Positions 29,663-56,359 of a stretch of DNA of 64,000 nt are shown here, in pieces. The stretch covers positions 48,744 through 112,743 of the forward strand of contig JAXJUM010000042.1 of the NCBI GenBank assembly GCA_036309045.1, written 5' to 3'. The position numbers and the translations under genes were made by a program. Position 1 is the first letter of the stretch; every line of letters starts with the position of its first letter. The stretch comes from Acutalibacteraceae bacterium (GTDB lineage Bacteria; Bacillota; Clostridia; Oscillospirales; Acutalibacteraceae). Below the pieces are notes generated by a model. It was not told where the DNA came from. It saw only the letters and a program-made list of their open reading frames with translations, and made no database searches.

Positions 29663-30028
29663 TTGGAAGTGAAAATTAATAGAGAAATCCGCAACTATAC
29701 AGAAGCGGTGTTCTTTGGTCTGTCTCTTCGACAGATCATTTTTTCTGCCTGTGCCTGCGGTGTAGCAGTCCTTATTTTCTTTATGCTAAAGCCGTATCTT
29801 GGTACAGAAACAGTTTCTTGGCTGTGTATGCTTGGTGCTTTTCCTTTTGCCATTCTTGGCTTTGTGAAGTACAACGGCATGACGGCTGAAAAATTTATTA
29901 TGGCTTGGATTAAGTCTGAGCTTTTAACACCTAAAAAACTGATGTTTAAATCTACAAATACTTACTATGAACTTATGAAACAGAACATTGAAAAGAACGA
30001 AAAGGAGGCAATGAAAGTTAATGATTAA
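29663..30028 (+). CDS. PrgI-family (VirB3-like) T4SS membrane protein
   Basis: TTG start 7 nt after AGGAGG, two TM helices, immediately upstream of VirB4-like. Confidence 0.7.
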   Translation: MEVKINREIRNYTEAVFFGLSLRQIIFSACACGVAVLIFFMLKPYLGTETVSWLCMLGAFPFAILGFVKYNGMTAEKFIMAWIKSELLTPKKLMFKSTNTYYELMKQNIEKNEKEAMKVND

Positions 30029-34777: not shown

Positions 34778-36529
34778 ATGCCTGATATTAAAACAAGAGA
34801 TTTAGTGAAAGGAACTATTAAAACGCTTGATAAAGCTGTTGTAACATCAGAGCGTATGAAACAAGCGTACATTCAAACAAAAGATAAATCAACAGAATCA
34901 GTAAGCTCACAAGATTACTCACCCGAAGATTATGCTTTAACAAAAATTGAAGGAGCCGTTGAAAGCACTGTTAGAGAGACTACACATCAATCTGTTAATC
35001 TCGGTAAAAAGGCGATGAATAAAACTAAAAATGAAGTTAAAAGGCACTTTGAAAACAAAGCAAATAATAATACTCAGGAGATGGGACGTAATACCGCTAA
35101 AAAAACTACAGTTCAAAAGAGTAAACAAGCCCATTCCCAAAAAATTCGTACCGCTGAACAGACTACAAAAGGTGTGAAACAGACGGCAAAAAGCACAGGT
35201 TCAAAGGCGATAAAGACAGCACAGAAAGGTACGGTCAAAACTGCAAAAACAAGTGTTAAGACAGCCGAAAAGACCTCAAAGGCAGCTATTAAAACTGCCG
35301 AAAAATCCGCAAAGGCGGCTAAAGAAGCGGCAAAAGCATCAGCAAAAGCCGCAGAAAAAGCAGCTCAGGCTGCAAAGGCTACAGCACAAGCAGCTGTCAG
35401 GGCTACAAAGATTGCAATTAAAGCTGTTATTGCGGCTATAAAAGCAATTATCGCAGGTGTTAAGGCTTTAGGTGCGGCGATTGCCGCAGGTGGTTGGGTT
35501 GCAGTTATTATAATTATTGTTATTTGCCTGATTGCTCTTATTGTCGGTTCTTGTTACGGAATATTTTTTGCAGGAGAGGACTCAGGTTCGGGTATTACAT
35601 TACCATCAGCTATAAGCGAAATTAACGGAGAATACAATCAACAGATTGAACAGTTAAAAAGTGATAATCCACACGATATTCTTGAAATGTCAGGAACAAA
35701 AGCCGAGTGGAAAGAGGTTATTGCAATTTATGCTGTTGATAAAACTATGGCTGACCTTAACCCTGCTAACCCTGATGAAGCTCAGCAGGTTGCCACTATG
35801 GATGAAGAGAAAAAGGAATACCTGAAAAATCTCTTTTGGGAAATGAATAAAATCGAGCATCGCACCGAAACGAAAACAGTTACGGAAACTGTTGAGGAAG
35901 TTCGGGATGATGGTAGTGTAGAGTTGGTTGAAAGGGAGGTTGAAAAAACCACTTTATATATTACTGTTACACACATCAGCCTTGAAGAAATGATGTCTCA
36001 GAAAAATTTCACGGATGTACAAAGAGATATGGTATATGAACTTCTCGCTGATGAAAACAATATCTTATGGCTTGATGCACTGCACGGAATTACCAGCTCA
36101 GATACAGAAATTGTAAGCGTTGCTCAAGCACAGATAGGTAACGTTGGCGGACAACCTTACTGGAGTTGGTACGGATTCGGTTCTCGTGTAGAATGGTGTG
36201 CCTGTTTTGTTTCTTGGTGTGCAAATGAGTGTGGATACATTGATGCAGGACTTATTCCAAAATACGCAGTGTGTGATACAGGTGTATATTGGTTTAAGGA
36301 GAGAGGTGAATGGGTTGAGGGTACTGAAGAACCTAAACCCGGTATGATAATCTTCTTTGATTGGGAATACGATGGTTTGGATGGAAACTCCGACCACACA
36401 GGTATTGTAGAAAAAGTTGAAGGTGGTAGAGTATATACGATAGAGGGCAATGCGAGTGACTCTTGTATGGAGTGTTCCTACCCTGTAGGTTATTATGAGA
36501 TATTAGGCTATGGAGCCCCTGCGTATTAA
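34778..36529 (+). CDS. T4SS-associated peptidoglycan hydrolase with C-terminal CHAP domain
   Basis: Lys/Ala-rich repeats, one TM segment and CHAP motifs (WCACFVSWC and DHTGIV...IEGN). Confidence 0.8.
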   Translation: MPDIKTRDLVKGTIKTLDKAVVTSERMKQAYIQTKDKSTESVSSQDYSPEDYALTKIEGAVESTVRETTHQSVNLGKKAMNKTKNEVKRHFENKANNNTQEMGRNTAKKTTVQKSKQAHSQKIRTAEQTTKGVKQTAKSTGSKAIKTAQKGTVKTAKTSVKTAEKTSKAAIKTAEKSAKAAKEAAKASAKAAEKAAQAAKATAQAAVRATKIAIKAVIAAIKAIIAGVKALGAAIAAGGWVAVIIIIVICLIALIVGSCYGIFFAGEDSGSGITLPSAISEINGEYNQQIEQLKSDNPHDILEMSGTKAEWKEVIAIYAVDKTMADLNPANPDEAQQVATMDEEKKEYLKNLFWEMNKIEHRTETKTVTETVEEVRDDGSVELVEREVEKTTLYITVTHISLEEMMSQKNFTDVQRDMVYELLADENNILWLDALHGITSSDTEIVSVAQAQIGNVGGQPYWSWYGFGSRVEWCACFVSWCANECGYIDAGLIPKYAVCDTGVYWFKERGEWVEGTEEPKPGMIIFFDWEYDGLDGNSDHTGIVEKVEGGRVYTIEGNASDSCMECSYPVGYYEILGYGAPAY

Positions 36530-38373: not shown

Positions 38374-38507
38374 CGAGTTTTGATGAGTTTTGTATAATAA
38401 TATCAGTTTATGTTTAAATGCTTTGTACATGATGTCTGTAATTGTAATGTTTTTGTTTTATTAGCCGTCAAAATTGTCGTCACTTGATATTTAGAAAGGA
38501 TGGTAAG

Positions 38508-39623
38508 ATGTCAAGAAAAGGTGAAAATATATACAAAAGGAAAGATGGACGATGGGAAGGAAGGTTTATAAAGAGGTATGAGCCTACTGGGAAAGCCAAA
38601 TATGGGTATGTTTATGCTAGAACATATAGGGATGTAAAGAGCAAATTGGAGGTCGCAAAAACAAATCATTCACGGTTTAACGATACCAACGATGCAACAT
38701 ATTGTGAACTACTTGATAAATGGTTAGCTTGCAAAAAGCGAGAAGTGAAATATTCGTCTTATATAAGATATAAAAATACGATTGAAAATCATATTAAGCC
38801 AGAACTCGGAAATATGAAAGTAAAAAGTATTTCAGCTGAAATACTTCAAGAGTATTTAAAAGTAAAATCTGAAAATGGACGGATTGATAGGACAGGAGGT
38901 TTATCTAACAAGTCTTTATCAGACATTCTAGTAATAATAAAAGAAACACTTAAATTTGGTAATGTGTACGATACAAGCATTATCAATTTAAAAGCCACTG
39001 CTTCGCAAAAGCATAAATCAATGAGAGTATTGAACGAAAAAGAGCAAACTAACTTAACAATAACTTTATTAAACGATACTGATATATACAAAATGGGAGT
39101 TTTGATATGTCTTTATACTGGCATTAGAATAGGTGAACTCTGTGCTTTAAAATGGTCTGATATTTCTTTAGAAAACAAAGTGATTAACATTAATAAAACT
39201 CTACAAAGACTTCCTAACACCAATCCAGAAGCTAATGCAAAAACTACTCTTTTTACATCAGAACCTAAAAGTGACTCTGGAAACAGAATTATCCCAATAC
39301 CGGAATTTCTATATACTATAATTCTCCCCTTTAGGAAACAGGACGAAATGAATGTGATATCTACAGATAAAAAACCTTTGATTGAGCCAAGAACAATGCA
39401 AAACTACTTCAAAAAGTATTTAGCAGAAAGTAATATATCGGATGCTAATTTTCATTCATTAAGGCACACCTTTGCAACGAGGTGCATAGAAGTGGGATTT
39501 GATATAAAAACGCTAAGTGAAATTCTTGGTCATTCTAGTGTAAAAATCACACTAGATAGATATGTTCATTCATCTTTAAATCTAAAAAAGCTAAATATGC
39601 AAAAACTAAAATTTGCAATCTAA
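38508..39623 (+). CDS. Tyrosine recombinase (phage-integrase family) inside the invertible segment
   Basis: N-terminus MSRKGENIYKRKDGRWEGRF, plus C-terminal HSLRHTFATR and LGHSSVKITLDRYVH catalytic motifs. Confidence 0.85.
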   Translation: MSRKGENIYKRKDGRWEGRFIKRYEPTGKAKYGYVYARTYRDVKSKLEVAKTNHSRFNDTNDATYCELLDKWLACKKREVKYSSYIRYKNTIENHIKPELGNMKVKSISAEILQEYLKVKSENGRIDRTGGLSNKSLSDILVIIKETLKFGNVYDTSIINLKATASQKHKSMRVLNEKEQTNLTITLLNDTDIYKMGVLICLYTGIRIGELCALKWSDISLENKVININKTLQRLPNTNPEANAKTTLFTSEPKSDSGNRIIPIPEFLYTIILPFRKQDEMNVISTDKKPLIEPRTMQNYFKKYLAESNISDANFHSLRHTFATRCIEVGFDIKTLSEILGHSSVKITLDRYVHSSLNLKKLNMQKLKFAI

Positions 39624-39732: not shown

Positions 39733-40074
39733 ATGGACAATACTGGCAGAAAAAATTATATGAATTATTGGAATTTTTCTAAAGAAGAAAAAAATCAACT
39801 GATTGCACACCTAACAAAAGAACTTCCCACATTAAGGGGAGCCGCTAAAGCTACCCAGGATGAAATTGCGAATATAATTGGAGTATCCCGACAAACATAC
39901 AATGCAATTGAAATGCAAAAAAGAAAAATGAGTTGGAATACATATATGTCATTGATATTGTTTTTCGATTATAATCCCAATACGCATTATACAATTAGAC
40001 AATTGGATGTTTTTCCATATCAGTTAGATGAGTGCTGGCTGTCAGGTAAACTTGAACAGTATAACGGAGAATAA
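39733..40074 (+). CDS. HTH (XRE-like) regulator, first gene of the large locus
   Basis: Product carries ATQDEIANIIGVSRQTYNAIEMQKR. Confidence 0.6.
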   Translation: MDNTGRKNYMNYWNFSKEEKNQLIAHLTKELPTLRGAAKATQDEIANIIGVSRQTYNAIEMQKRKMSWNTYMSLILFFDYNPNTHYTIRQLDVFPYQLDECWLSGKLEQYNGE

Positions 40075-40077
40075 TTT

Positions 40078-40305
40078 ATGGGAATTGAAGTTATAAAAAA
40101 AGATATACAAATTTTCCAGTCTTCTATCAAAAATTTAAGTGCTGGAATAAGTCGTGCTTCATCCTTATGGAAGGATGAAAAATATTCTGAACTTTCAGCT
40201 TCGATAAGAGAAGTTGCTAATAATTCAAAAAATGTTATTGTTACTGGTGACAGGTGTTGCTCAACGGTAGATAAATTTATCAAAATAGCAGCAGAAAAAT
40301 ATTAG
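40078..40305 (+). CDS. WXG100-like small helical protein (W-K-D-x-K-Y family)
   Basis: 75 aa with a central SLWKDEKYSEL. It is a paralogue of 42753 and of the toxin N-terminal domains. Confidence 0.6.
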   Translation: MGIEVIKKDIQIFQSSIKNLSAGISRASSLWKDEKYSELSASIREVANNSKNVIVTGDRCCSTVDKFIKIAAEKY

Positions 40306-40316
40306 GAGGTCATAGT

Positions 40317-41063
40317 GTGGTTGATGTAACAACAGAAGCATTAGAAATGGTAAAAAATGCTTTAACGACCTTTCAATCCGATATAAATGGTTTATCTATG
40401 CGTGCAACTAATCAAGCTGAAAAAATTACAGAAGAATGTAAAAATCATATAAAACAAGCAAAAACTGAAATAGCTCAAATTGAAACACAAATTTCTGCAT
40501 TAAATAAACAAATTTCTGAATTAAACGAGAAGATTGAGCAGGCGACAAGTCAATATAATACTATACTTACAAGGATTCCTCAATTAGAGAATAATATACG
40601 TTCCATAAATTCGAGAATTTCAGTACTGAACTCGCAAATAGCCTCGTTAAGATCTCAACTTGCAAATACAGAAGATGATGATGAACGTCAACAAATACAA
40701 GAACAAATCAATGTGGTAAGTCATCAGGTTGCTCAATACGAATCAGAACGAAATCGGTTAGAAATTGAATTGCAAAATTCTGAGCAACAAAAGAACGAAC
40801 TTCAACAAACTATAAATTCAGCTAAGTCAAAAAAAGCTCAATGTGAAAGTGAATTGTCAGTTCAAAAGAATAGATGTAATAGAATGAAAGACAAGCTTGA
40901 ACGTTTAAAAACAACATTTAGTAGAGTTGAATTGGATTTGAATGCTTATGTTGTTGCTACCCAAAAATTCGAAAGAAATTCAAGTGTAGAAACTCAAAAC
41001 CACAATAATTCCATTGGTAAGTGCATAGATAGTATAGAACAATATTTATCTGCTTCGATTTAG
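40317..41063 (+). CDS. Coiled-coil protein (hypothetical)
   Basis: GTG start 7 nt after AGGAGG. 248 aa with Q/N/E-rich heptad-like sequence. Confidence 0.55.
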   Translation: MVDVTTEALEMVKNALTTFQSDINGLSMRATNQAEKITEECKNHIKQAKTEIAQIETQISALNKQISELNEKIEQATSQYNTILTRIPQLENNIRSINSRISVLNSQIASLRSQLANTEDDDERQQIQEQINVVSHQVAQYESERNRLEIELQNSEQQKNELQQTINSAKSKKAQCESELSVQKNRCNRMKDKLERLKTTFSRVELDLNAYVVATQKFERNSSVETQNHNNSIGKCIDSIEQYLSASI

Positions 41064-41110
41064 AGCGCCTTCGTTAATAATACAGTAATAGACAAAGGGG
41101 AATATATTAG

Positions 41111-42223
41111 GTGAATAAAGAAAAAAACACTTTTAGAAGCAATGATGCTTTTCCGCAATCAGTGAATAATCAGTTTTGGAACGATCTTAGAAAACAGGCT
41201 GCTAATAATTATATACCAATACATGGTCATTTTGAAATTACTCCTCGATGTAATCTGAATTGTAAGATGTGTTACGTACATTTGAATAATACTCAGATGG
41301 GTAAACTAAATGAATTACCATTTTTAAAATGGAAAGAAATCGTGGACCAAGCTATTCACATGGGAATGCTTTTTGCATCAATTTCAGGGGGAGAATGTTT
41401 AACTAGTCCATATTTTGATGAACTATATTTGTATTTGAAATCTAAAGGAATTATTGTCTTTGTTTTAACAAATGGAGTTTTGCTAGATAAAAAAATATCA
41501 TTGTTTGAAAAATATCCGCCTGCATTGATTCAGGTTTCTGTGTATGGTTATGATAAAGCTAGTTATATAGCGGTTACTGAAAAAGATGAATATGATAATG
41601 TTTCAAACTCTATCGAAAAAGCACATAAATTAGGATTGCCTATTAGTGTAGCTGTTACTGCAAGTAGATATTTACCATCTGTTTATGAAATAGTTAAAAA
41701 GTATTATGAAATCGGCATCGGTGTTACTGTAAATAGATGGATAATGCCTCCATACGAATCTACAGGTAGAAAATTTGGTGATATAAATCTATCTCCTGAT
41801 GAGCAGGTTAATATTTCAAAAGAAATACTTCAAGCAACAGAACAAGAATTAATACCTTGTCCAGTTGAACCTCTGCCAAAACCAATTATGTTTTTGAAAG
41901 ACAGAGCACCTAAAAAAGGATTACTTTGTGCTGCTGGAAGAAGTGATTTTAGTATAAATTGGAAAGGAGAAATGAGCTTATGTGTTTCTTTAAATACTCC
42001 TACAGGATACCCTTTGATAGATGGTTTTAAAAAAGCTTGGGAACAAACTGTAATAGCAAGTAAGGAATTCTTAATGCCAGTTGAGTGTTATGAGTGTAAA
42101 TACTTAAAAGTATGCAATCGCTGTCCGGCACAACATTTAATAAATAATCTACCCGGACATTGTAATCCAGCGGTGTGTGAAGAAGGCATACTGATGGTTA
42201 AAAACGGATTAGTTTCTTTATAA
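41111..42223 (+). CDS. Radical SAM enzyme with C-terminal SPASM-like Cys cluster
   Basis: CNLNCKMC (CxxxCxxC) at about 41249-41272, and a C-terminal CYECKYLKVCNRCPAQ. Confidence 0.8.
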   Translation: MNKEKNTFRSNDAFPQSVNNQFWNDLRKQAANNYIPIHGHFEITPRCNLNCKMCYVHLNNTQMGKLNELPFLKWKEIVDQAIHMGMLFASISGGECLTSPYFDELYLYLKSKGIIVFVLTNGVLLDKKISLFEKYPPALIQVSVYGYDKASYIAVTEKDEYDNVSNSIEKAHKLGLPISVAVTASRYLPSVYEIVKKYYEIGIGVTVNRWIMPPYESTGRKFGDINLSPDEQVNISKEILQATEQELIPCPVEPLPKPIMFLKDRAPKKGLLCAAGRSDFSINWKGEMSLCVSLNTPTGYPLIDGFKKAWEQTVIASKEFLMPVECYECKYLKVCNRCPAQHLINNLPGHCNPAVCEEGILMVKNGLVSL

Positions 42224-42237
42224 AGGAGGTGTAAATT

Positions 42238-42354
42238 ATGTATGAAAAGCCTGTAGCTATCAAAGTGGATTTTACTTACGAGATAGCTTTCGCAAAGAAA
42301 TGTCACTTTGCAGATTACGGAGAGTGCTCTCCAAGTGAACAGCAGTATAAATGA
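42238..42354 (+). CDS. 38-aa candidate RiPP precursor peptide
   Basis: AAAGGAGG lies 8 nt upstream. Product MYEKPVAIKVDFTYEIAFAKKCHFADYGECSPSEQQYK. Followed by a hairpin. Below the ORF-track cutoff. Confidence 0.5.
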   Translation: MYEKPVAIKVDFTYEIAFAKKCHFADYGECSPSEQQYK

Positions 42355-42371
42355 TTGCTAAGTTAAAAAAT

Positions 42372-42401
42372 GAGCGGCAAACGCTCGTTAGTTTGTCGCT
42401 C
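42372..42401 (+). terminator. Hairpin (attenuator or partial terminator) after the precursor ORF
   Basis: 11-bp stem GAGCGGCAAAC/GTTTGTCGCTC (one G-U pair), 8-nt loop and a weak T-tract. Confidence 0.45.
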
Positions 42402-42423
42402 ACATTTTTAGGAGAGTTTGAGT

Positions 42424-42702
42424 ATGTGTAAATATTTCAATAGTGAAAATTATATTTGCAGACAATTAGTAGATAATATTTTACTTTTTCCTGTAAGTCA
42501 GGAAGTGAGTGACTTTCAGGGAGGCGTAATTTTAAATAGAGTATCCCATTTTGTGTGGAAGTTATTATCTGTTCCTTGTACAAAAGATGAGATTGTGAAT
42601 GCTGTATCTCAGGAGTTTAATGCGGATATAGCTATGGTAGAAACAGATATTGAAGAACTTTTAAACAGTTTTATAGAAATGAAAATTGTTAAAGTTGAAT
42701 AA
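42424..42702 (+). CDS. PqqD-family (RRE-type) peptide chaperone
   Basis: Product carries ILNRVSHFVWKLLSVPCTKDEIVNAVSQEFNADIAMVETDIEELLNSFIEMKIV. Confidence 0.65.
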   Translation: MCKYFNSENYICRQLVDNILLFPVSQEVSDFQGGVILNRVSHFVWKLLSVPCTKDEIVNAVSQEFNADIAMVETDIEELLNSFIEMKIVKVE

Positions 42703-42752
42703 AGTAAATCGAAGGGCACGTTACCCTAAATGATAAATAAGGAGGTCTATAA

Positions 42753-43034
42753 ATGGCAAATGGTGTATCTGTAGAGAGTGCAGCCATACAGGGCGGAATT
42801 GGATGTTGTAAAACATCAATTCATGAATTAGAGACTGCATCGAGGAATTTGCAAAGAAGCTATCAGCAAGCAGGTTCAGGAGGATGGAAAGACCAAAAGT
42901 ATGCTGCATTAGGTGGTATAGTTGAAGAATGTTGCAGTGCTTTAACAAAACCTATTTCCGAACTACAGGATTGTATGGTTAAACTGAATGATTTGCTTAA
43001 AGCAGTTGGCGATTACGAGCAAGTCAATTTATAA
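42753..43034 (+). CDS. WXG100-like small helical protein (W-K-D-x-K-Y family)
   Basis: 93 aa with a central GGWKDQKYAALGGIVEEC, ending YEQVNL just as the toxin N-domains end. Confidence 0.65.
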   Translation: MANGVSVESAAIQGGIGCCKTSIHELETASRNLQRSYQQAGSGGWKDQKYAALGGIVEECCSALTKPISELQDCMVKLNDLLKAVGDYEQVNL

Positions 43035-43049
43035 GGGAGGTAAAAAAGT

Positions 43050-43319
43050 ATGGCAGTAAAAGCTTCCCCTGAAACAATTAGGGAGATGAAAAAAGAGATT
43101 TCTAATACCATTCGAGATATTGAGAGAATCAGCAGTGGTATTAAGACAGGAATGTCAGCAACATCTAATTGGGATGATGCTAAAGCAGCTCAATTTAACA
43201 TGTTGATGCAACAGATTGCAAGGTTAACATCGACACCTATAGAAACGTTGAATGCAGCTTTACCGAAATTGGAAAAGTTAGCACAGTCATTAGATCAATA
43301 CAATAGAGTTAAATTCTAG
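43050..43319 (+). CDS. WXG100-like small helical protein (W-D-D variant)
   Basis: 89 aa with a central SNWDDAKAAQF. Confidence 0.55.
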   Translation: MAVKASPETIREMKKEISNTIRDIERISSGIKTGMSATSNWDDAKAAQFNMLMQQIARLTSTPIETLNAALPKLEKLAQSLDQYNRVKF

Positions 43320-43338
43320 ATTAAGGAGGAATTATAAA

Positions 43339-44259
43339 ATGGCTAATGAACAAAAGATAACAAATGGCGTGGATGCTATTCCTACATTTACCCCGCCGTC
43401 ATCAAATGAAAATCAAACTGGAGGAAAGAGCGATGCTATTCCTACTTTCACACCTCCAACCCCTACATTTACCCCACCACAGAATGTGAAACCACAATTT
43501 AATGGACCTGCATGCTATTATCACAAGGACGAGCCTGCTGTAGCTAAATGTGCTAGATGCGGTAAATTTATTTGCCAAGATTGTTTTGATAATTATGGTG
43601 TATCAAGTGGAGATTATGCTGGTAAAGCATTGTGTTATGACTGTTGTCAGCAAATTGTAGCAGCAAATGTCGTTGATTTAAAAAAGAACAAAAATAAGAT
43701 TATGTTTCAGTTTATTATATCGATTATTGGTATGGTTTTTGGTATGATAGTTGGTATAGCAAGTGGCGGTGGCTTTGCAGGTGCGGTTATTGGTATAGCT
43801 ATAGGCGGAGTTCTGTTGAGTGCAATAAAAGTATTTTTCTCTTTGGTATGGGATGTTATTAAGATTGCCTTTTCTGGTCAATTTGGTATATTAACGATCT
43901 TCTCAATCATTTTTAACATTATTGTTTTAATAATCAAATGCTTGATAACTACAATTTCTAACACTTTCTATTACATATCTTATTTAATTAAGACGTCGGG
44001 ATTTATTGCCTCTGATGAAGCAGCTTTAAGGCAAATGGCTGACTATATGGAATATACAATGATACGTAATCAAAATAGAGGCGTTGATCTTGAAACCCTT
44101 CTTAATCAAAAGAGCGAACTCGCCGACAACTCTTATGCTCGTATGGTTCAAGAAAAAGGTGAAGAAGGTGCAGAAGCAGCACTTAGAAATTGCGTTGCAA
44201 CAATTAATGAAAATGGTGAAATCATTAGAAACTTCAATATTGCAGGTAGAGCTGCTTAA
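43339..44259 (+). CDS. Membrane protein with N-terminal Cys-rich zinc-binding (B-box-like) module
   Basis: DAIPTFTPP occurs twice. CYYHKDEPAVAKCARCGKFICQDC...CYDCC is followed by 3-4 TM helices. Confidence 0.6.
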   Translation: MANEQKITNGVDAIPTFTPPSSNENQTGGKSDAIPTFTPPTPTFTPPQNVKPQFNGPACYYHKDEPAVAKCARCGKFICQDCFDNYGVSSGDYAGKALCYDCCQQIVAANVVDLKKNKNKIMFQFIISIIGMVFGMIVGIASGGGFAGAVIGIAIGGVLLSAIKVFFSLVWDVIKIAFSGQFGILTIFSIIFNIIVLIIKCLITTISNTFYYISYLIKTSGFIASDEAALRQMADYMEYTMIRNQNRGVDLETLLNQKSELADNSYARMVQEKGEEGAEAALRNCVATINENGEIIRNFNIAGRAA

Positions 44260-44314
44260 AATTTACAAAAGTTATATGAAATTAAAATACTTAATATAAA
44301 CAGGAGGATTAAAT

Positions 44315-44488
44315 ATGGATAACAATATAAATAGCGATGCAGTTGCAGCAAGAAGAAGAGCTTTGGCAGAAGCTTTGCGTACAGGTGAACCCGTTGTAGT
44401 AACCGCAAGTGGTGAAGTTGAAAAAAAGGATGATGCGGTAGACCAAGGCTTATCTGGTATTCAAGTTCCTGAGGGTAAATTAGCGTAA
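44315..44488 (+). CDS. 57-aa protein immediately upstream of the E2-like gene (candidate modifier or adaptor)
   Basis: CAGGAGGA RBS. Product MDNNINSDAVAARRRALAEALRTGEPVVVTASGEVEKKDDAVDQGLSGIQVPEGKLA. Below the ORF-track cutoff. Confidence 0.5.
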   Translation: MDNNINSDAVAARRRALAEALRTGEPVVVTASGEVEKKDDAVDQGLSGIQVPEGKLA

Positions 44489-44500
44489 GGAGGGAATACA

Positions 44501-45046
44501 ATGGCTTATTATTGGTATCAAAGCGACCCACAGCTGTACCAAATGGAAGTTGCAGCTATGAGGAAGTTTTTTCCATCATTCACCATAAATCAGCTCCAAG
44601 ATGGTTCAGGAAGATTGTACTGGAGAGGTAAAGTTCAACCTACAGGAGAAGGTGGTATGGTTTGGGATTTGATGTTGATTTACAAAAACACACATCCTAG
44701 AGCAGAAGGTTATGGTGGCTCTATCCAAATACTTCCTCTGCAACCTAGATTAAAAGATTTAGCTGACAATATAATGCCATCGATTCTGCAACAATATAAT
44801 AACAATATGGATACTTTGTATGCCAAAGGGTTGCAGTTAGGTCTTCCTCATGTATATCATGATAAGTTTGGACGTAATGAAGAATATTTTATTTGTAGTG
44901 CAGATCCTAAGTTTTTTAAAGCGGGACAAAATCAGTCTACTTCAGCAGCTTCAGCTTTGAGTTGGGCTTGCAAATGGATTATTCTTTGTGAGATGTGGTT
45001 GAATGGTGAAATCGGCGATGATGTCGCTTTAGAAGGTAACTATTAA
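44501..45046 (+). CDS. Prokaryotic E2 (UBC-fold)-like protein
   Basis: 181 aa. LPHVYHDKFGRNEEYFICSADP mirrors the HPN...C catalytic arrangement of E2s. Gene context is E2-JAB-E1. Confidence 0.55.
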   Translation: MAYYWYQSDPQLYQMEVAAMRKFFPSFTINQLQDGSGRLYWRGKVQPTGEGGMVWDLMLIYKNTHPRAEGYGGSIQILPLQPRLKDLADNIMPSILQQYNNNMDTLYAKGLQLGLPHVYHDKFGRNEEYFICSADPKFFKAGQNQSTSAASALSWACKWIILCEMWLNGEIGDDVALEGNY

Positions 45047-45047
45047 A

Positions 45048-46133
45048 ATGATTATACCTCCAAACTCTCTTGCAAAGCTAAAGGGAGTTTGGAGGTTTTG
45101 TTATAGGCTGGAGGTTTATCAAATGAGAGTAGTTTTTTCAAACAGAGCATACGCTTCTGTTTTAGCTGAAACAACTGAAAAGATTAAAACGGAAACCGGT
45201 GGTTTGTTTTTAGGAACGGTGCAGGATGATACTTGGTATATTATTGAAGCCATAGACCCCGGCCCAAAGTCAATTTTTCAAGTTGCATATTTTGAATATG
45301 ATCAAAAATATACCCAACACCTAATTAATAAAATTGCGAATCTGTATGATAGTCGACTGTCCTTAATTGGTTTATGGCATCGTCATCCCGGATCATTTGA
45401 TCAATTTTCATCAACAGATGATGGTACTAATGCTCAATATGCATCTATGAGAGAGGAAGGTGCAATTTCAGCTTTAGTAAACATTGATCCAAGTTTTAGA
45501 ATTACGATGTATCAGGTCGAAAGACCTTGCCGTTATAGAAAGATAGCATATGATGTTGGCGATAACCTTATTCCTGATAAGTTTTTGAGATTCAAAACAC
45601 CAGAAAGATATTATTCCATTATGAATAATATTCTTTATCCATCTACAACTGGAGGAGACGTGAATGACGGATACCACAAATCAGTTAGTTTGGCATCTTT
45701 TATGAAATTTATTCTGCCACAGATGAAAGATGACGAATGTACAGATGTTGAAACAAACAATTTACTTGGCGATGAATCTACACAAGAACAGCTTATTGAT
45801 GAAATTGTGGATGATTTGACATTTATGGCGGATACAATTGGTATTGAAACCGCTATGTCGCTTGATAACAATTACCTTACTGTTTATCAAGAAGCAATAG
45901 ATAAAACAACAAAGCTGTATTTTATGCTTTCCATTGTTAAACACGATATTATTCTTTCCTATGAAAATAAGTGCTACATATATCGCAAAGGATTATTTAT
46001 GGAAGCTTTCGGGAAAGCAAAAGCTGAGCAAGATAGAAAAGATAATAGTGAAAACAGAACAAAACATAGAAAAAAAGCAGGAGTCATTGATTCCGTTATT
46101 AAAATAATTAGATTTAACAGAAACGAGGAATAG
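45048..46133 (+). CDS. JAB/MPN (JAMM) metallopeptidase-domain protein
   Basis: Product carries AETTEK...GLWHRHPGSFDQFSSTD (E, HxH, S, D). An alternative start at 45123 follows GGAGG. Confidence 0.75.
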   Translation: MIIPPNSLAKLKGVWRFCYRLEVYQMRVVFSNRAYASVLAETTEKIKTETGGLFLGTVQDDTWYIIEAIDPGPKSIFQVAYFEYDQKYTQHLINKIANLYDSRLSLIGLWHRHPGSFDQFSSTDDGTNAQYASMREEGAISALVNIDPSFRITMYQVERPCRYRKIAYDVGDNLIPDKFLRFKTPERYYSIMNNILYPSTTGGDVNDGYHKSVSLASFMKFILPQMKDDECTDVETNNLLGDESTQEQLIDEIVDDLTFMADTIGIETAMSLDNNYLTVYQEAIDKTTKLYFMLSIVKHDIILSYENKCYIYRKGLFMEAFGKAKAEQDRKDNSENRTKHRKKAGVIDSVIKIIRFNRNEE

Positions 46134-46137
46134 TAAT

Positions 46138-47292
46138 ATGGGAATAAAAAGACCTAAAAATTTCTTCGGTGAGGATATACCGCTTACAGTTTTTATATCC
46201 GAAGAACAGCTCCACAATAGAGAGTGCGTAAAAGTTTTTGGTAAGTATTTTGAAGATACAGGAATTTTCAATGTGCTACCTTCTGAATTATTTGACAAAG
46301 GTAAATATCTGGGTGATGTTCTTCCTGAAGGTAGCTCACCTGCCGAAGACGGCTTCTGCGGTATAATTACCGAAGAGGGTATTGATTTTTATTGGAGTGG
46401 CGAAAAGATCGTAACCGAGTCTTATGGACTTTACCAAAGTATTTTTTCGAGAAATAAGGGGATTCTTGAAACCGATGTTATGAAGAAAAAATGTGCCGTA
46501 ATTATAGGTTGCGGTTCTGTTGGTAGCTTGGTTGCAATGGAATTAGCAAGAGCAGGCGTTGAAAAATATGTGCTGTGTGATGCGGATACTCTTGAGTACC
46601 ACAATGTGTGTCGTCATCAGTGCGGCATTGAGGATGTTGGAGATCTCAAAGTAAATGCACTTAAAAGAAAAATTCTTAATATCAATCCAAAAGCGAATGT
46701 AAAGACTTTTGGAGGTATCATTCAGAATATCCCTAAAGAAATTCTTGATGAAATGTGTACTCCATTTGAAACAATCTTTGTTGGTTGTGGAGATAATCGT
46801 GCGGCTGATGTTTACGCTAACAAAATTGCTGTTTATTTTGATGCTGCATTTATTTCGATTGGCTTTTGGGAAAGAGCTTATGCAGGAGAAATCTTCTACC
46901 ACATTCCCTATAAAAATATGCCGTGCTACCAGTGTGCATTAGGTAGCGGAGATATGTCAGGTCGTGTTGAGGCAAATCACCACGTTTATTCCAACCAAGA
47001 GAACATTGAAAATCTGAAATTCGAACCCGGCATTTCTGTTGATATAAACTTTATTACAAGCGTTGGTATTAAATTGATAATTGATATTCTTAATTCAACA
47101 AATGAAGGATATATTCCTCGCTTGCTTAATAACTTGAAACAGTACACCCTCATTTGTAATACGAGCGATCCTGCCATCGGTGGAGAAATGGTTGAAATCT
47201 TTAGCTATCCGTTACAAGTAACCACTTCACTCGTAGTTGGCTTCGGAAAAGACTGTAACGGTGAGTGCAATTATGAATTGGAAGAAAAGTAA
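46138..47292 (+). CDS. E1-like (ThiF/MoeB/HesA family) adenylating enzyme
   Basis: Product carries VIIGCGSVGSLVAMELARAGV...LCDADTLEYHNVCRHQ and a CYQC zinc motif. Confidence 0.75.
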   Translation: MGIKRPKNFFGEDIPLTVFISEEQLHNRECVKVFGKYFEDTGIFNVLPSELFDKGKYLGDVLPEGSSPAEDGFCGIITEEGIDFYWSGEKIVTESYGLYQSIFSRNKGILETDVMKKKCAVIIGCGSVGSLVAMELARAGVEKYVLCDADTLEYHNVCRHQCGIEDVGDLKVNALKRKILNINPKANVKTFGGIIQNIPKEILDEMCTPFETIFVGCGDNRAADVYANKIAVYFDAAFISIGFWERAYAGEIFYHIPYKNMPCYQCALGSGDMSGRVEANHHVYSNQENIENLKFEPGISVDINFITSVGIKLIIDILNSTNEGYIPRLLNNLKQYTLICNTSDPAIGGEMVEIFSYPLQVTTSLVVGFGKDCNGECNYELEEK

Positions 47293-47319
47293 TCCTATTC
47301 AGGAGAAAGGAAGGCGTTT

Positions 47320-50300
47320 ATGAAGGCTTTAGCTCAAAGCGAAATAATTGCTTTGATTACCGACTTAAATGCATTTGCTGATAGTGCTGAAGCTTTAATC
47401 AACACTACACGGATAAACTATGATAAGGACAAAAGATTGCTTCAAAACAGACACAGTAGTGTCTTATCAAATTTAGATAGTACCTACAAAGCAAACTGTT
47501 CCTCGGTACAAAGCAAATCAAAGCAGACTATTGCTGACGCAAAAAAAATACTCGCTGAAACCAACAAGCTGGACGAAAAGCTCTCAAGCGTAGACAAATA
47601 TTATGTTAAAACCAAAAAGAAAAAAGAGAAACTTTTGTCAGATACCACAAGTGCTGCTTATGATGATGCAACGGACTATTTCAAAACGCTTAGCAAAATA
47701 AAAGATAGTTTCAAGGTTCTTTATAAGAAATATTCCGAGGATATTCTTCCCGGTCTTATTAACGGCTTAAATTATTTATTCTCGAGTCAACGAAAAAAAG
47801 ACTATGAAGAATTAATTATCTTGAGAAATACAGTAGCTGCTTTTGTCAAAGAGATTGAGGAAATGCTACCACAATTAACCGAAGAGAACCTTGCAACCCT
47901 GAAAGAAGATTACTTTACTCAGCGTGGTAGTATGATTGAGCGACAGAAAAACGAAGTTGCAAATTTTGAGAGTAACCATTCTGCAACATTAGATAAAGTG
48001 GCAGATAAGATTTGCACAGAACTCGATAATGTACTTCCTGATGAGTTTGTAGATTACTTGAGTGCAATTATGGCGAACTATGCGAAAGTTGTTCACAAAG
48101 TGAATGCTTCAAATGAAATTCAAGATGAAGTGTTGAATATGTGCTATGTGGATTATCCAGTAGACTTTTTTGTGCAATCTAAGATTGTTGCATCCATCAT
48201 AAAGGAAAAATGTTCAAAGCTATTAGTGAATGGTTCAATTAGACTGCCTGTTATGATGTCTACAAGAAACGCACCTGTTTGGATGATTGCAAACGACAAC
48301 AGTAATAGTTCTATGGTACAAGCGTTTACTCACTCCATTATGTACGGGCTGCTTTCTTCTTGCCCGGTTGAAAAGTTGACCTTTACCATTGTCGATCCTG
48401 AGAACCGTGGCAACAGCATATCACCTTTCTTTGATGCGAAGAAAAAACTTCCTGAACTGTTTGGCGAAAGAATTTACATAAGTAAAGACGAGGTTGCCGC
48501 CAAAGTCAGCAAACTGAATGAAAAAATTGAGAATATTCTTCAAGATAGGCTCGGCAACCAATATGATACCATTTTTGACTATGCAAAGAGTACGCCTGAT
48601 TATAACCTCAATGTCGAGTTTATTATGCTCTATGATTTTCCAAGAGGTTTTGATGAGCGTACCCTTGCTGAACTCAGAAATGTTTTACGCAACGGAAGTA
48701 TGTGTGGAATCTACACGGTAATTTCCTATTTGCCTGAACCTGATAATACTCGTTCAAGAGAATATCAGCAGAACTTACAGTCTATCATTGACCTTTCGAC
48801 TGTAATAAATCAAAATGGTGAAAACTTTGTATTACGTGGACTTCCTCTCGTTTATTACACAATGCCTGAAAAGATTGAATTTGCTAAATTCTTTAGTAAA
48901 TATATGCTTATTTTTGAAGGTATTAAGAATCGTGGTATTGCCTTCTCCCCACTTATCAGAAAGCTCATCGAAGCAAAAGACTCTATGGAGCTTGATGCTC
49001 ACATCGAGCAGATCTGCGAGATGATGAAGAACTACGAAAAAACTTATGCACAAGTACCGGAAATCAAATCCGTGTTCCCTTCATTGGTTACATTAGGAAA
49101 TGTTCTGTATCCTGCTGATGTGTTCTCTGACAGTATCGGCTATAAGCACATTATTGATAAGTTTGGCACTGAACGCAGAGCTGGAACAGAAAACACTTCT
49201 TTTGTTGAATTGCCGCTTACCTTTGACTTGCGAAATTCTTTCAATTTGTTCTTGAATTGTCCTGAAGCAAGCAGTAAAGGAATGCTCGACTTTACACATC
49301 ACGTCATTTGGAGCTTTCTTTCCTTTATGCCTGTCACAAAGGTAAATGTATGTGTATTTGATAGTGAGCAACGAGGAAATAGTATTATTCCTTTCCTTGA
49401 TTTCCGCAAACGCTCACCTGAAACCTTTGATCAGAAGATTTATACAAGTCAGGAACAAATGTATGACCGTCTGCAAAAAATCAACGCTCAGATTGACGAG
49501 TTCATACAAGAAAAATTAGGCAATAGATATAAAGATATTCTTGACTATAACTTAAACACACCGAATAGAGCTGAACCCGTTACACTCTTGGTATTATATG
49601 ATTTCCCAAGTGGAATGGATGGAAGAAGCATTGATTTGTTGAAAAACATCTTGAGAAACGGTAATAAGTGTGGTGTATTCACTTTGATCTGCTACAATCC
49701 AAATATCACATTCTCCCGTTATGAAAGCATTGATGAGCGATTGGAACAGATTTCAAGATATTGTGCATCTATTGATTATAAACATGGGCATTATAGTCTA
49801 TTACCTTATAATTTGCAAATTAACACACCTGAGTTGCTTTCTTACAATGCGACTGATGTGTTTATCGCAGATTATATTGAAAAGAGCGAAACAATTAAGA
49901 AACAAGGACTCTCCTTTAAGGATATTATTTCTAAGGATTTGTTCTCACTTGATTCCTCTAAGTCAATGAAGATACCCGTTGGTGTTGGTGACGGAGATAG
50001 CATCGTCAACATCACTATTGGTGAAGGTTCATCCCATCACGGTCTTATTGCAGGTGCTACCGGTTCAGGTAAATCCACGCTGCTCCATACCCTTATTATG
50101 AGTAGTATGCTTCATTACAGTCCTGACCAACTCCATTTGTATCTTATGGACTTTAAGAGTGGTACTGAATTTAAGATTTACGAATCGGTTAAGCTCCCTC
50201 ACATCCAACTTCTTGCGTTGGATGCCATGCAGGAGTTCGGTGAGAGTATTCTTGAAAACCTTGTAACCGAGATGGAAGCAAGAGCCAAAGCTTTTAAAGA

Positions 50301-51711: not shown

Positions 51712-51788
51712 ATGTGTGGATATGCCATATACACAGAGGTTTACCCCTTTGTGTATATGGCTAATTCCAAAAGAAGGAGCGAGGGAAA

Positions 51789-52580
51789 ATGATTTGTAAG
51801 AAGTGCGGAAAAGAGATAAAAGATACCGCTAAATTTTGCGGTTATTGTGGTTCAGTAAACGAACCTACTATTGGCGTACAGACGCCGGAAATTTCTGAAA
51901 CGGTCAACTATACACCGTCTTGGATGAAACAAGAGGTGAAAACAACAACGAGTACAATTTCTGCTAAGCAGAATGTAGATATTAAGACTGAAATAAGTAA
52001 AAATGCGGGATTGGTTGCGTTGCCGTGCATTTATTTGGTTTGGCAAATTATACGAATATTCTTAAATAGGAATATGATAAGTTATGGCAATGACTCCTAT
52101 ATGACCTATATGTATATCACAATTATTGTAGGGTGTATTCTTTATGGTGCTATAAGCGGCGGATTAGTAATTGCTATAAATAAGTGTTCAAAAAATTTCA
52201 AATGGGTATATTTAATTCCCTATATGATTGTTTGTGCTTACTTTTTGCTTACGAGTATAAACTATTTTGAAAGTGTACTATATTCGATTTTTGAGTTTTT
52301 AGAAATAATCGTTTCTATGGTAGTGATTATTTCTTTGCAAAACACACAATTAGGTAAAGAAAAATCAGCGAAGTCAACTATTACGATTGCCGCTATTTCT
52401 ACCGGCGCCGGAGTGCTTGTGTTCCGTTTCCTTTATTATTTACTTATTAGCATTCTTTTCGGTGGATTTGTAAGTTTTACTCTTTGGAATGTCATCACAA
52501 GTGCAGCTTCCATACTTGGTGCTGTGATTACTTCGGCAGTAATCGTTAATTCCGCTTATATGAAAAACTCACAGAGGTAG
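51789..52580 (+). CDS. Zinc-ribbon + polytopic membrane protein
   Basis: N-terminal CKKCG...CGYCG followed by about 6 TM helices. Confidence 0.6.
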   Translation: MICKKCGKEIKDTAKFCGYCGSVNEPTIGVQTPEISETVNYTPSWMKQEVKTTTSTISAKQNVDIKTEISKNAGLVALPCIYLVWQIIRIFLNRNMISYGNDSYMTYMYITIIVGCILYGAISGGLVIAINKCSKNFKWVYLIPYMIVCAYFLLTSINYFESVLYSIFEFLEIIVSMVVIISLQNTQLGKEKSAKSTITIAAISTGAGVLVFRFLYYLLISILFGGFVSFTLWNVITSAASILGAVITSAVIVNSAYMKNSQR

Positions 52581-52585
52581 ACGTT

Positions 52586-53787: not shown

Positions 53788-53814
53788 TTGATTTTTTGCA
53801 AAGGAGGGATTTGC

Positions 53815-54789: not shown

Positions 54790-54797
54790 GTGCAGTG

Positions 54798-55271: not shown

Positions 55272-55303
55272 GAAATATCATCGCTTAAAGGAGGTGTAAG
55301 CTA

Positions 55304-56356: not shown

Positions 56357-56359
56357 CTT

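Follow-up and report, generated by a model that had tools for sequence, protein, structure and literature searches.

A type-VII-like gene cluster of gut Clostridia in which a diverged WXG100 hairpin forms small free-standing proteins and also heads putative polymorphic toxins as their N-terminal domain

The cassette described here lies on the forward strand of a 64,000-nucleotide stretch of Acutalibacteraceae DNA (the whole stretch analysed, referred to hereafter as the window), with operon-like packing (gaps of −20 to +77 nt, GGAGG ribosome-binding sites). Its features are as follows (L-numbers denote the loci compared):

39733–40074, +: putative 113-aa HTH regulator at the operon head, read from sequence (HTH/TetR-type Pfam matches at the same position in L015 and L011)
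40078–40305, +: 75-aa free W-x-D hairpin, a short paralogue that aligns with the family
40317–41063, +: 248-aa coiled-coil protein (coiled-coil Pfam and NCBIfam matches only)
42753–43034, +: 93-aa free W-x-D hairpin, EsxA-like core member (AlphaFold2 hairpin; TM-scores to EsxB and EsxA)
43050–43319, +: 89-aa free hairpin paralogue with W-D-D-A-K-A (Pfam WXG100, E 3.5e-5, positions 2–83 of 86)
43339–44259, +: 306-aa membrane protein (TM scan; zf-B_box, E 8e-5, and 1.5e-5 for the L035 counterpart)
44315–44488, +: 57-aa small protein ending ...GKLA, directly 5′ of the E2 gene (63–93% identity in related loci)
44501–45046, +: 181-aa E2-like protein (PADLOC E2 models, E 9e-9; H-x-x...C motif read in the sequence)
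45048–46133, +: 361-aa JAB/JAMM metallopeptidase (Prok-JAB, E 6e-7; PADLOC JAB, E 4e-12)
46138–47292, +: 384-aa ThiF-type E1-like adenylating enzyme (ThiF, E 7e-25; PADLOC E1-E2 models, E 4e-25)
47320–51711, +: 1,463-aa soluble EccC/EssC-like ATPase (TIGR03928, PDB sequence search, Foldseek)
51789–53512, +: accessory module of two multi-pass membrane proteins with zinc ribbons, 263 and 308 aa long (Pfam Zn_Ribbon_1, DZR, TM7S3_TM198)
53509–53787, +: 92-aa helical protein ending YLKVEL, without W, a possible divergent partner (in-register alignment with the family; hhalign probability only 13%)
53815–54789, +: putative toxin 1, W-x-D N-domain (~93 aa), linker and papain-like Peptidase_C39_2 (WXG100 26.4 bits; Peptidase_C39_2 30.5 bits, cut-off 24)
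54783–55271, +: candidate toxin 1 immunity protein, ~157–162 aa, start probably ATG 54798 (position only)
55304–56356, +: putative toxin 2, W-x-D N-domain and HExxH (FHELAHMIDH) putative metallopeptidase (WXG100 27.3 bits; weak M91 match)
56360–56614, +: 84-aa candidate toxin 2 immunity protein (3 nt 3′ of the toxin gene; co-occurrence)
56919–57800, +: 293-aa membrane M48 metallopeptidase at the cassette end (Peptidase_M48, E 4.5e-22)

This gene order recurs in ~20 distinct loci, which span about ten genera and families of Clostridia and include some whose members are just 36–45% identical to the 93-aa protein; Blautia glucerasea LFYP119 and Lachnospiraceae MGB1 are isolates with the cassette; the cluster is common in gut Clostridia and is usually accompanied by ubiquitin-type E1, E2 and JAB. 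Three free hairpins, the coiled-coil protein, the B-box membrane protein and the ATPase constitute a constant set in all loci examined, to which most add the 57-aa protein, E2, JAB, E1, toxin genes and the M48 peptidase, with a small candidate immunity gene usually lying behind each toxin gene. Synteny is strict: the 113-aa gene, which in the window ends 3 nt before the 75-aa gene, keeps its position in L001–L003, L005, L008 and L009; the 248-aa gene is always immediately 3′ of the 75-aa gene and remains syntenic in all loci, the minimal Blautia locus included; and the 89-aa gene everywhere follows the 93-aa gene at 10–25 nt. The 75-aa protein is kept at 44–85% identity in all loci with enough flank except L035 (Blautia glucerasea), where a very weak 72-aa counterpart alone was found. 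The 306-aa protein (N-terminal B-box zinc finger, ~4 TM helices, conserved C-terminus with a cytoplasmic tail ending Ala-Ala) belongs to the minimal core, being kept in L035. The M48 gene lies 3′ of the toxin genes in L001–L009 and L014, and was not detected in L035 or in ~4.5 kb downstream of the L011 ATPase.

The hairpin proteins were recognized by a motif that the initial annotation had given as W-K-D-x-K-Y, and a six-frame scan recovered in place every string quoted there. The window contains WKDxKY four times (at 40168 in the 75-aa ORF, 42885 in the 93-aa ORF, 53941 in toxin 1 and 55430 in toxin 2) against an expectation of 0.01 (mean over window shuffles), and the variant SNWDDAKAAQF lies at 43170, inside the 89-aa ORF (WDDAKA having one occurrence in the window). 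W-x-D is present in 137 of 141 family representatives and W-x-G in none of them; because only the Trp and Asp are invariant across the family, we define the motif as W-x-D, the Lys and Tyr of the longer version being near-invariant and failing in the 89-aa class. Helix 2 holds a near-invariant Cys and is closed by the family tail E-Y-[ED]-x-[VT]-x-[LF]; Y[ED]xVNL, with a chance expectation of 0.095 matches in the window, comes last in the 93-aa protein (43014) and occupies residues ~88–93 of toxins 1 and 2 (54070, 55559).

Alignments place the 93-aa protein end to end on the first ~93 residues of both toxins, its stop codon coinciding exactly with D-N/G in each, with divergence from there on. 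This coincidence, and a family profile spanning residues 1–91/93 in 78 longer relatives, lead us to equate free protein and delivery domain for the 93- and 89-aa proteins; the equation does not extend to the 75-aa protein, a shorter paralogue whose N-terminus is ~13 residues short and whose last residue is the conserved Tyr. Scanning of the hairpin proteins and toxins revealed neither signal peptides nor TM helices. An exhaustive search yielded 595 cluster representatives of the W-x-D domain; the 90%-identity cluster of the 93-aa protein has 313 members, none named, and that of toxin 2 has 209, all named “hypothetical”.

Among the best 150 of the 595 representatives, 78 are at least 180 aa long and carry the W-x-D domain at residues 1–92. 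Their C-domains include ADPrib_exo_Tox, Gln_amidase, Peptidase_C39_2, Endonuclea_NS_2, WHH, LHH and Colicin-DNase, such that ADP-ribosyltransferase, deamidase, papain-like peptidase and nuclease classes are represented; we read the hairpin as a putative delivery domain for polymorphic toxins because about half of the best 150 bear toxin-type C-terminal domains. Together with the two window toxins, the 78 relatives supply 80 C-terminal regions that fall into 23 sequence clusters, and many genomes link the domain to variable toxins, in agreement with the dual use (free protein and toxin N-domain) proposed from the window alone. The arrangement resembles that of WXG-/LXG-/LDXD-headed T7SS toxins (Zhang et al. 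2012, PMC3482391) in its constant helical N-terminal trafficking domain, recombining C-terminal toxin and downstream immunity gene, and shares with them ART, deamidase, HNH/WHH/LHH nuclease and peptidase types; it differs in its N-domain, one ~92-aa hairpin of the same extent as the free proteins rather than a ~200-aa LXG domain, and in that the apparatus is no canonical T7SS. Within the window, an AAGGAGG ribosome-binding site precedes the GTG start of toxin 1 at 53815, and homologues likewise support this start. The candidate immunity gene of toxin 1 overlaps the toxin stop codon and its product has no family match in profile searches, while homologues of the 84-aa protein occur only at loci with a toxin-2 type C-domain (L007, L008, L009).

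We consider it probable that the locus represents a diverged WXG100 clade, used as free proteins and as polymorphic-toxin N-domains, within a T7SS-like export operon served by an EccC/EssC-type ATPase. A point against this reading is that E2/JAB/E1 modules of such type are otherwise known from anti-phage systems (PADLOC comparison). The order small protein–E2–JAB–E1 mirrors BilA-B-C-D, and, as in the E1-E2-JAB operons of Bil and CBASS (Cap2/Cap3), the E2 Cys, the ThiF fold and the JAMM motif (H-x-H-x7-S-x-x-D, HRHPGSFDQFSSTD) are all intact at the sequence level. The cassette could be an intracellular conflict or abortive-infection system, in which the ATPase and E2-JAB-E1 sense or signal infection in the manner of CBASS or Bil, hairpin-fused enzymes are internal effectors and the “immunity” proteins are antitoxins; such an account would suit an ATPase that has no TM segment and contains an FtsK domain with further matches to the defence models SspH and mad8, the matches of E2, JAB and E1 to PADLOC CBASS-type models (with weak PF26395 E2-CBASS matches among E2 homologues), and a position on mobile DNA adjoining an OLD-like nuclease and a methylase. 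We nevertheless regard it as unlikely, given a polymorphic-toxin architecture in which one constant N-domain is joined to no fewer than 23 exchanged C-domains from classical interbacterial toxin families, with cognate genes 3′ of them, the T7SS likeness of both N-domain and ATPase, and two conserved membrane proteins in the cassette. Furthermore, L035 retains the hairpins, B-box protein and ATPase, and the 57-aa protein, E2, JAB and E1 are missing there together; E2-JAB-E1 is therefore an accessory module, dispensable for the core. The module also departs from Bil and CBASS in its placement, flanked by the genes of a membrane protein and of a T7-like ATPase, and in having no recognized beta-grasp Ubl, the 57-aa partner (no family match in Pfam or PADLOC profile searches) being too short and ending GKLA; the CD-NTase of CBASS is absent, and profile searches of the window found neither a CBASS-typical cyclase nor another sensor.

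The reading of the hairpins as diverged WXG100 proteins draws on both profile and fold. Pfam WXG100 (PF06013) scores 27.3, 26.4 and 24.4 bits in the window with nearly the whole model covered, the first of these (toxin 2) equalling the gathering score exactly, and no other Pfam family comes near it: WXG100 matches 29 of 50 family members at E ≤ 0.1, as well as 12 of the 78 long members at E ≤ 1e-3; most members fall below the gathering threshold and are annotated “hypothetical”. The PF06013 match sets the Trp of WxD on that of WxG, and the family profile aligns at full length to EsxB and EsxA, again W on W. AlphaFold2 predicts the 93-aa protein (pLDDT 91) as two helices (9–42 and 48–92) about a GGWKD turn at 43–47, as had been supposed of the motif, and the best reciprocal TM-scores (0.79–0.87) are to B. 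anthracis EsxB, S. aureus EsxA and EsxEF. The W-K-D-x-K-Y proteins are thus a diverged WXG100/ESAT-6 branch in which Asp replaces the turn Gly, and the fold is not new. The earlier placement of the motif outside WXG, LXG and LDXD holds insofar as LXG (PF04740) and TIGR04197 have no match to the hairpin proteins or toxins in profile searches; it does not hold as a claim of a separate class, and the mapping leads to WXG100 rather than to a described non-secretion family. Like WXG100/ESAT-6 proteins (EsxA, EsxB, YukE), these are ~90–100 aa hairpins with Trp at the turn and no signal peptide, encoded by two adjacent small genes in one operon with an EccC/EssC-type ATPase; they differ in the W-x-D-x-K-Y turn with its invariant Asp for Gly, and in the tail E-Y-[ED]-x-V-x-L, which is neither YxxxD/E nor HxxxD/ExxhxxxH.

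Could this likeness be convergent, the hairpins being generic coiled-coil adaptors (in the manner of ATPase assembly factors or chaperones) that are never exported and merely tether enzymes to a complex? The bare hairpin gives Foldseek E-values of 0.1–0.6, which are not significant, and does not separate WXG100 from ESCRT-III, FadA or designed hairpins; the family profile reaches only E ~0.08 against the PDB, beside syntaxin and chemoreceptor helices; the 93-aa or 75-aa protein alone has no Pfam match, WXG100 included; and the defining Gly is absent. Against this stand WXG100 as the sole Pfam family matched consistently, over its full extent and with the Trp aligned, a length, turn position and bicistronic ~90-aa gene pair that mirror esxA/esxB, linkage to the EccC-like ATPase gene, and fusion to enzymes of toxin families needing export or immunity, and we hold convergence to be improbable.

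Kinship of the ATPase to EccC/EssC of the T7SS, the other support for a diverged WXG100 export operon, is evident by HMM, PDB sequence and fold, in keeping with the EsxA/LXG-like logic suggested at the outset. The protein begins with a coiled coil, continues with two degenerate alpha/beta repeats that are homologous to each other (R1~R2, hhalign probability 100) and ends with a predicted active FtsK-type domain and a degenerate C-terminal domain, with a Walker A (residue 912) in just one of its four alpha/beta domains; TM and domain scans found neither a TM helix nor an FHA domain. It matches TIGR03928 (EssC) at E 1e-39, far below the family cut-off, and EccC 4nh0 at 2e-29 in the PDB sequence search, versus 6e-9 for FtsK; in Foldseek, using a structure model of moderate confidence (pLDDT 70, pTM 0.41), EccC 4nh0 leads at 2.6e-22 over 968 columns, followed by EssC and EccC D2-D3. 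That the cassette might instead be an accessory of the surrounding conjugative element, with the ATPase as a coupling-type motor passing hairpin-tagged effectors through a type IV channel to recipients, is hardly credible: TcpA-type coupling proteins are among the fold matches (E ~1e-7) and a relaxase, T4 coupling protein, VirB4-like ATPase and CHAP hydrolase are encoded upstream in the window, but EccC/EssC score far above coupling proteins, the element has its own T4CP, a putative tyrosine recombinase gene (38484–39623, read from sequence) separates the cassette from the transfer genes, the L011 core is preceded by an integrase only, and the L035 core has genes for a methylase, a fucose isomerase and an AraC regulator as neighbours, the flanking ORFs scanned there including none for conjugation.

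Ten T7SS subtypes, a–j, have been described, the ATPase being membrane-bound in all ten and a YukD-like protein present in most (Garrett, Higginson & Palmer 2024, PMC11217815). Like them, the cassette has small WXG100-like proteins, a multi-domain ATPase of FtsK type that is closest to EccC/EssC, and toxin substrates whose genes adjoin those of additional small hairpin proteins; it is distinguished by a soluble ATPase with an N-terminal coiled coil and one Walker A domain. No YukD-like, EssA/B, EsaA or EccB/D/E protein was detected in Pfam and NCBIfam profile searches of the window, no kinase component was found in the cassette, and FHA was likewise missing; conversely, none of the subtypes has E1, E2, JAB, a B-box membrane protein or M48, and the text of PMC11217815 makes no mention of ThiF, E1-like, JAB or zinc. 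The missing T7SS components, the single Walker A domain and the soluble state of the ATPase count against the export reading. We conclude that this is an undescribed type-VII-like gene cluster whose layout lies outside subtypes a–j.

Analogy with the T7SS suggests how such a machine might operate. The free hairpins would pair mutually and with the toxin N-domain into four-helix bundles. The EsxB tail docks on EccC D3, and the conserved C-terminal tail here may likewise dock on the ATPase, which, as a soluble hexamer tethered to the membrane through the B-box protein, would drive export of hairpins and toxins. Exported toxins would act on competing gut Clostridia, the candidate immunity proteins protecting the producer, and the E2-JAB-E1 module, probably partnered by the 57-aa protein, may regulate the machine reversibly from outside the core.

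The zinc-ribbon module has a narrow distribution. Both of its genes are complete only in the window and L009 among the loci compared, L014 encoding at an unrelated position a 292-aa protein with faint zinc-ribbon matches only, and the 92-aa protein ending YLKVEL occurs only beside this module.

A W-K-D-x-K-Y helical hairpin, proposed in the initial annotation to serve both as small free proteins and as toxin N-terminal domains, occurs at four sites in the window (WKDxKY at 40168, 42885, 53941 and 55430), all on the plus strand and within open reading frames, against 0.01 matches expected on average from window shuffles; a variant, WDDAKA, lies at 43170. The six-frame scan and alignments bear out the earlier description of motif and reading frames, and the family is used in both ways, by the following proteins:

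40078–40305, plus strand, 75-aa hairpin protein
42753–43034, plus strand, 93-aa hairpin protein
43050–43319, plus strand, 89-aa hairpin protein
53815–54789, plus strand, toxin 1
55304–56356, plus strand, toxin 2

Y[ED]xVNL closes the 93-aa frame and, in both toxins, marks the domain boundary; the 93-aa frame stops at the exact point where both toxins run on into divergent sequence. The suggestion that the free protein equals the delivery domain thus stands for the 93-aa protein; the 75-aa protein is a shorter paralogue, terminating at the conserved Tyr. The Trp and Asp of the motif are invariant across all three paralogue classes, and the third motif position is Asp in 137 of 141 cluster representatives, none of which carries W-x-G. 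A near-invariant Cys is present in helix 2 (V-x-E/D-C) of the free 93-aa class and the toxin heads, and within the 93-aa class Cys is conserved at 18/19 and 74 as well, two sites that should be opposed across the hairpin; for WXG100 proteins such Cys conservation is unusual.

An exhaustive profile search over 1.84 billion representatives recovered 595 proteins at E ≤ 1e-3 (259 at E ≤ 1e-10). Among the best 150 of these 595, 40 are at most 100 aa long and 78 are at least 180 aa long with the domain at residues 1–91/93. The C-terminal regions of those 78 long relatives and both window toxins (n = 80) fall into 23 sequence clusters, and Pfam identifies seven classical toxin families among the long members (ADP-ribosyltransferase, glutamine deamidase, Peptidase_C39_2, Endonuclease_NS_2, WHH, LHH and colicin-DNase). 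Toxin 1 carries a papain-like C39_2 domain (30.5 bits, cut-off 24) and toxin 2 an HExxH motif; a PDB sequence search with both toxin C-domains returned nothing useful. Toxin and candidate immunity genes co-occur: a small frame directly follows each window toxin gene, and homologues of the 84-aa frame after toxin 2 are confined to three loci with the same toxin C-domain. A constant N-domain, variable C-domains and a downstream candidate immunity gene together identify, at the level of sequence, a putative polymorphic toxin system. [quoted passage not shown] 2012 (PMC3482391).

Many database relatives of the family are truncated or chimeric (metagenome proteins P0048, P0025 and P0037–P0050). One chimera joins a toxin head to a piece of the downstream M48 gene, another fuses the 93-aa and 89-aa genes in frame, and a further set shares identical heads with divergence starting at differing points; genuine recombination and decay of cassettes may account for these, as may errors of assembly.

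The hairpin and toxin genes belong to an operon whose genes all lie on one strand (39733–57800), spaced by −20 to +77 nt and preceded by GGAGG ribosome-binding sites. It encodes, in order, an HTH regulator, the 75-aa hairpin, a 248-aa coiled coil, the 93-aa and 89-aa hairpins and a B-box membrane protein (~4 TM segments); then come a 57-aa protein, E2, JAB (JAMM intact), a ThiF-type E1, a 1,463-aa FtsK-type ATPase, the toxins, each with its candidate immunity gene, and a membrane peptidase of the M48 family. Public sources hold no informative names for the cassette proteins. The gene order is repeated in ~20 distinct loci (from Oscillospiraceae, Acutalibacteraceae, Ruminiclostridium, Ruminococcus, Faecalibacterium, Butyricicoccus, Lachnospiraceae, Marvinbryantia, Anaerotignum and Congzhengia) and is kept also near family members only 36–45% identical to the 93-aa protein; because of this recurrence, the W-x-D family is specifically tied to the cassette, with strict linkage to the EccC-like ATPase and the B-box protein. 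Among gut Clostridia the cassette is both mobile and widely distributed.

The window has further genes within this order. Inserted between the coiled-coil and 93-aa genes are:

41111–42223, radical-SAM/SPASM enzyme
42238–42354, 38-aa Cys-containing frame with a strong ribosome-binding site
42418–42702, PqqD-like protein

The radical-SAM and PqqD genes were rejected as system components, since the related loci all lack them and the window alone has them; the layout of 41111–42702 resembles a small cassette for RiPP maturation, landed at a variable position in the operon. Between ATPase and toxins, an optional three-gene module (51789–53787) encodes a pair of multi-pass membrane proteins with zinc ribbons and a helical protein of 92 aa whose C-terminus reads YLKVEL; all three genes together were seen in the window and one other locus only (L009, 14465–16438, whose toxin has the toxin-2 type C-domain). 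At an hhalign probability of 13%, the 92-aa protein (at 53509) was not assigned to the hairpin family.

The composition of the core is delimited by a locus from an isolate of Blautia glucerasea (L035, 7984–14665), which adjoins a fucose isomerase gene and comprises a 72-aa protein, coiled coil, 95-aa and 89-aa proteins, B-box membrane protein and ATPase; missing from this cluster are the 57-aa protein, the enzymes E2, JAB and E1, M48 and any toxin gene next to it. The core of the system is therefore made up of the ATPase, the B-box membrane protein, the coiled coil and three hairpins, with E2-JAB-E1 as an accessory module. In the window, family searches and motifs read from the translations show E1 (ThiF), E2 with its catalytic Cys and JAB with its JAMM motif all to be present. 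The 57-aa protein (44315–44488) is 63–93% identical in other loci, keeps a constant GKLA end and is lost together with E2-JAB-E1, which makes it the best candidate for the partner of these enzymes. The B-box membrane protein (43339–44259) nearly always ends in Ala-Ala (RAA, NAA, FAA); such conserved small C-termini beside E1/E2/JAB could be adenylation substrates or ssrA-like degrons. As a conjugation site we relied neither on an invariant Lys, which is missing from the 89-aa class, nor on the near-invariant Cys, which is retained in the Blautia locus devoid of E1 and E2.

The E1, E2 and JAB set is shared with Bil and CBASS modules, and would speak for reading the cassette as an intracellular defence system instead of a secretion system. 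Bil and CBASS conjugate a Ubl or a CD-NTase C-terminus; family searches detected neither a beta-grasp Ubl nor a CD-NTase in the cassette, whose only candidate is the 57-aa protein. The module is absent from the Blautia core, and we consider the defence reading unlikely. Export is favored instead; the hairpins and the ATPase both point to T7SS.

Against PF06013 (WXG100), toxin 2 scores 27.3 bits (equal to the gathering score), toxin 1 26.4 and the 89-aa protein 24.4, with near-complete model coverage. Pfam searches with the 93-aa and 75-aa proteins singly gave no WXG100 match; when 50 family members were searched, no other Pfam family came near WXG100 (29 of 50 at E ≤ 0.1, best E 3.5e-7). Matches to TIGR03930 lie far under that model's cut-off. 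LXG (PF04740) and TIGR04197, the other models named in the initial annotation, matched neither the hairpin proteins nor the toxins at E ≤ 1, and the N-domain spans ~92 aa as against the ~200-aa L-x-G domain of LXG toxins. The family profile aligns with EsxB and EsxA from the PDB over the full length, weakly (E ~0.08), with the Trp in register ("geWkDk" over "gqWaGa"). AlphaFold2 models the 93-aa protein (pLDDT 91) as helices 9–42 and 48–92 joined by a GGWKD turn, and Foldseek gives its best reciprocal TM-scores (0.79–0.87) for B. anthracis EsxB, S. aureus EsxA and mycobacterial EsxEF, the E-values of the bare hairpin being non-significant.

The W-x-D proteins are thus predicted to share the ~100-residue helix-turn-helix hairpin of WXG100/ESAT-6 proteins, keeping the Trp of the W-x-G turn and bearing Asp instead of Gly; Asp is a good helix N-cap residue. 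We infer, as the simplest reading, a WXG100 clade in which Asp replaces Gly. The motif had not been recognised in the initial annotation as WXG, LXG or LDXD: W-x-G is indeed absent and the LXG and TIGR04197 models are silent, but the family is very probably a WXG100 variant and no new class. Taken alone, membership of the WXG100 superfamily together with the toxin-head role is very probable. That the hairpin is convergent and not secreted would sit with the modest profile and Foldseek E-values; the in-register Trp, the lead of WXG100 across 50 members and the linkage to an EccC-like motor speak for common descent, and we hold convergence to be quite improbable.

Kinship with WXG100 is matched by that of the ATPase. 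TIGR03928 (EssC) matches it at E 1e-39, though far under the NCBIfam equivalog cut-off, and a PDB sequence search ranks EccC first (4nh0, 2e-29), then EccC5 and YukB, with FtsK at 6e-9. The sequence match is limited to residues ~880–1065, which hold the sole Walker A (residue 912); residues 291–590 and 591–875 are homologous tandem repeats without Walker A (hhalign probability 100), and a PDB search of the flanks (residues 281–880 and 1081–1463) found nothing useful. The AlphaFold2 model of residues 291–1463 (pLDDT 70) has four alpha/beta domains, and in Foldseek its first match is the cytoplasmic part of EccC with its three ATPases (968 columns, E 2.6e-22), followed by EssC and EccC D2–D3 at ~1e-13 and by FtsK and TcpA at only ~1e-7. 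Sequence and model together argue for an EccC/EssC-family ATPase with tandem FtsK-like domains; of the four alpha/beta domains the third alone looks catalytic. The arrangement differs from that of EccC: there a DUF domain precedes D1, and P-loops are retained in both D2 and D3. A hydropathy scan of all 1,463 residues found no TM segment and no FHA domain was matched, whereas all EccC/EssC proteins described so far are anchored by TM helices, whether or not they carry FHA; a length of ~1,460 aa is common to over 250 clusters of homologues. The EsxA/LXG-like logic proposed for the family accordingly holds, in that a WXG100-type hairpin serves as toxin head and is linked to an EccC-like ATPase.

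At the sequence level, a scan of the operon proteins gave no Pfam or NCBIfam match to a YukD/EsaB-like Ubl, EssA/EssB/EsaA, EccB/D/E or MycP. In the paper defining T7SS subtypes c–j (Garrett, Higginson & Palmer 2024; PMC11217815), ATPases are membrane-bound throughout and the partners are YukD-like proteins, kinases, phosphatases and FHA proteins; we found no mention of ThiF, E1-like, JAB or zinc in its text. Literature on T7SS combined with E1/E2/JAB yielded nothing describing the cassette. The W-x-D clade and its apparatus (soluble EccC-like motor, B-box membrane protein, usually E2-JAB-E1 and M48) appear to be undescribed, and the ATPase breaks the membrane-anchored rule.

In established T7SS biology, EsxAB form bundles and the EsxB tail is bound by EccC D3. 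By analogy, the hairpins would pair mutually and with the heads of the toxins, the ATPase would read the E-Y-E-x-V-x-L tail, which is conserved, as its signal, the soluble ATPase would dock on the membrane protein, toxins would reach competitors by export, and E2-JAB-E1 would modulate the process; this composite mechanism, as a whole, we consider likely. A bolder formulation is tentative and rather doubtful: gut Clostridia would possess a type-VII-like export system, undescribed and distinct from subtypes a–j, in which the soluble EccC-like motor and B-box protein export W-x-D hairpins and toxins and E2-JAB-E1 covalently and reversibly gates assembly or substrate loading in most lineages, the 57-aa protein serving as modifier or target. 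If true, it would be the first secretion machine under control of ubiquitin-type chemistry. Burroughs and colleagues reportedly predicted in 2011 that E1/E2/JAB operons conjugate some of the YukD-like proteins, and this prediction, of conjugated T7-associated small proteins, would then gain a functional context.

Toxin delivery between bacteria is poorly understood in the dominant gut Clostridia (Oscillospiraceae, Lachnospiraceae, Ruminococcus, Faecalibacterium, Blautia), canonical T7SSb having been studied mostly in bacilli and cocci, and the present findings point to a mobile, widely shared export cassette there. The sequence handle W-x-D-x-K-Y...C...E-Y-E-x-V-x-L should make hundreds of unannotated toxins and immunity genes findable in gut metagenomes, and the frequent E1-E2-JAB insert offers a tractable entry to bacterial ubiquitin-like conjugation beyond phage defence. 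Cultured carriers, Blautia glucerasea LFYP119 (core only) and Lachnospiraceae MGB1 (full cassette), make the proposals testable.

Upstream of the cassette, positions 1–36529 are occupied by a conjugative element; features of the region preceding the cassette are:

within 1–36529, Mob_Pre and MobA/VirD2 relaxases
1328–7657, 2,109-aa MutS_I/SNF2-like protein
7833–9953, large serine recombinase
22116–23918, T4 coupling protein
25273–26637, minus strand, OLD-like AAA/TOPRIM nuclease
27724–28989, minus strand, HTH-fused C5 cytosine methylase
30021–32345, VirB4-like ATPase
34778–36529, CHAP hydrolase
38484–39623, 379-aa putative tyrosine recombinase (read from sequence), directly before the cassette

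That the cassette is an accessory of this surrounding element is highly improbable: EccC/EssC fit its ATPase far better than coupling proteins such as TcpA do, the element has a T4 coupling protein of its own, and the Blautia core lies beside a fucose isomerase. Close relatives of the 93-aa protein were not found in viral contigs. Within the element, 25273–28989 lies on the opposite strand, with low GC and reversed skew, and is probably a defence islet.
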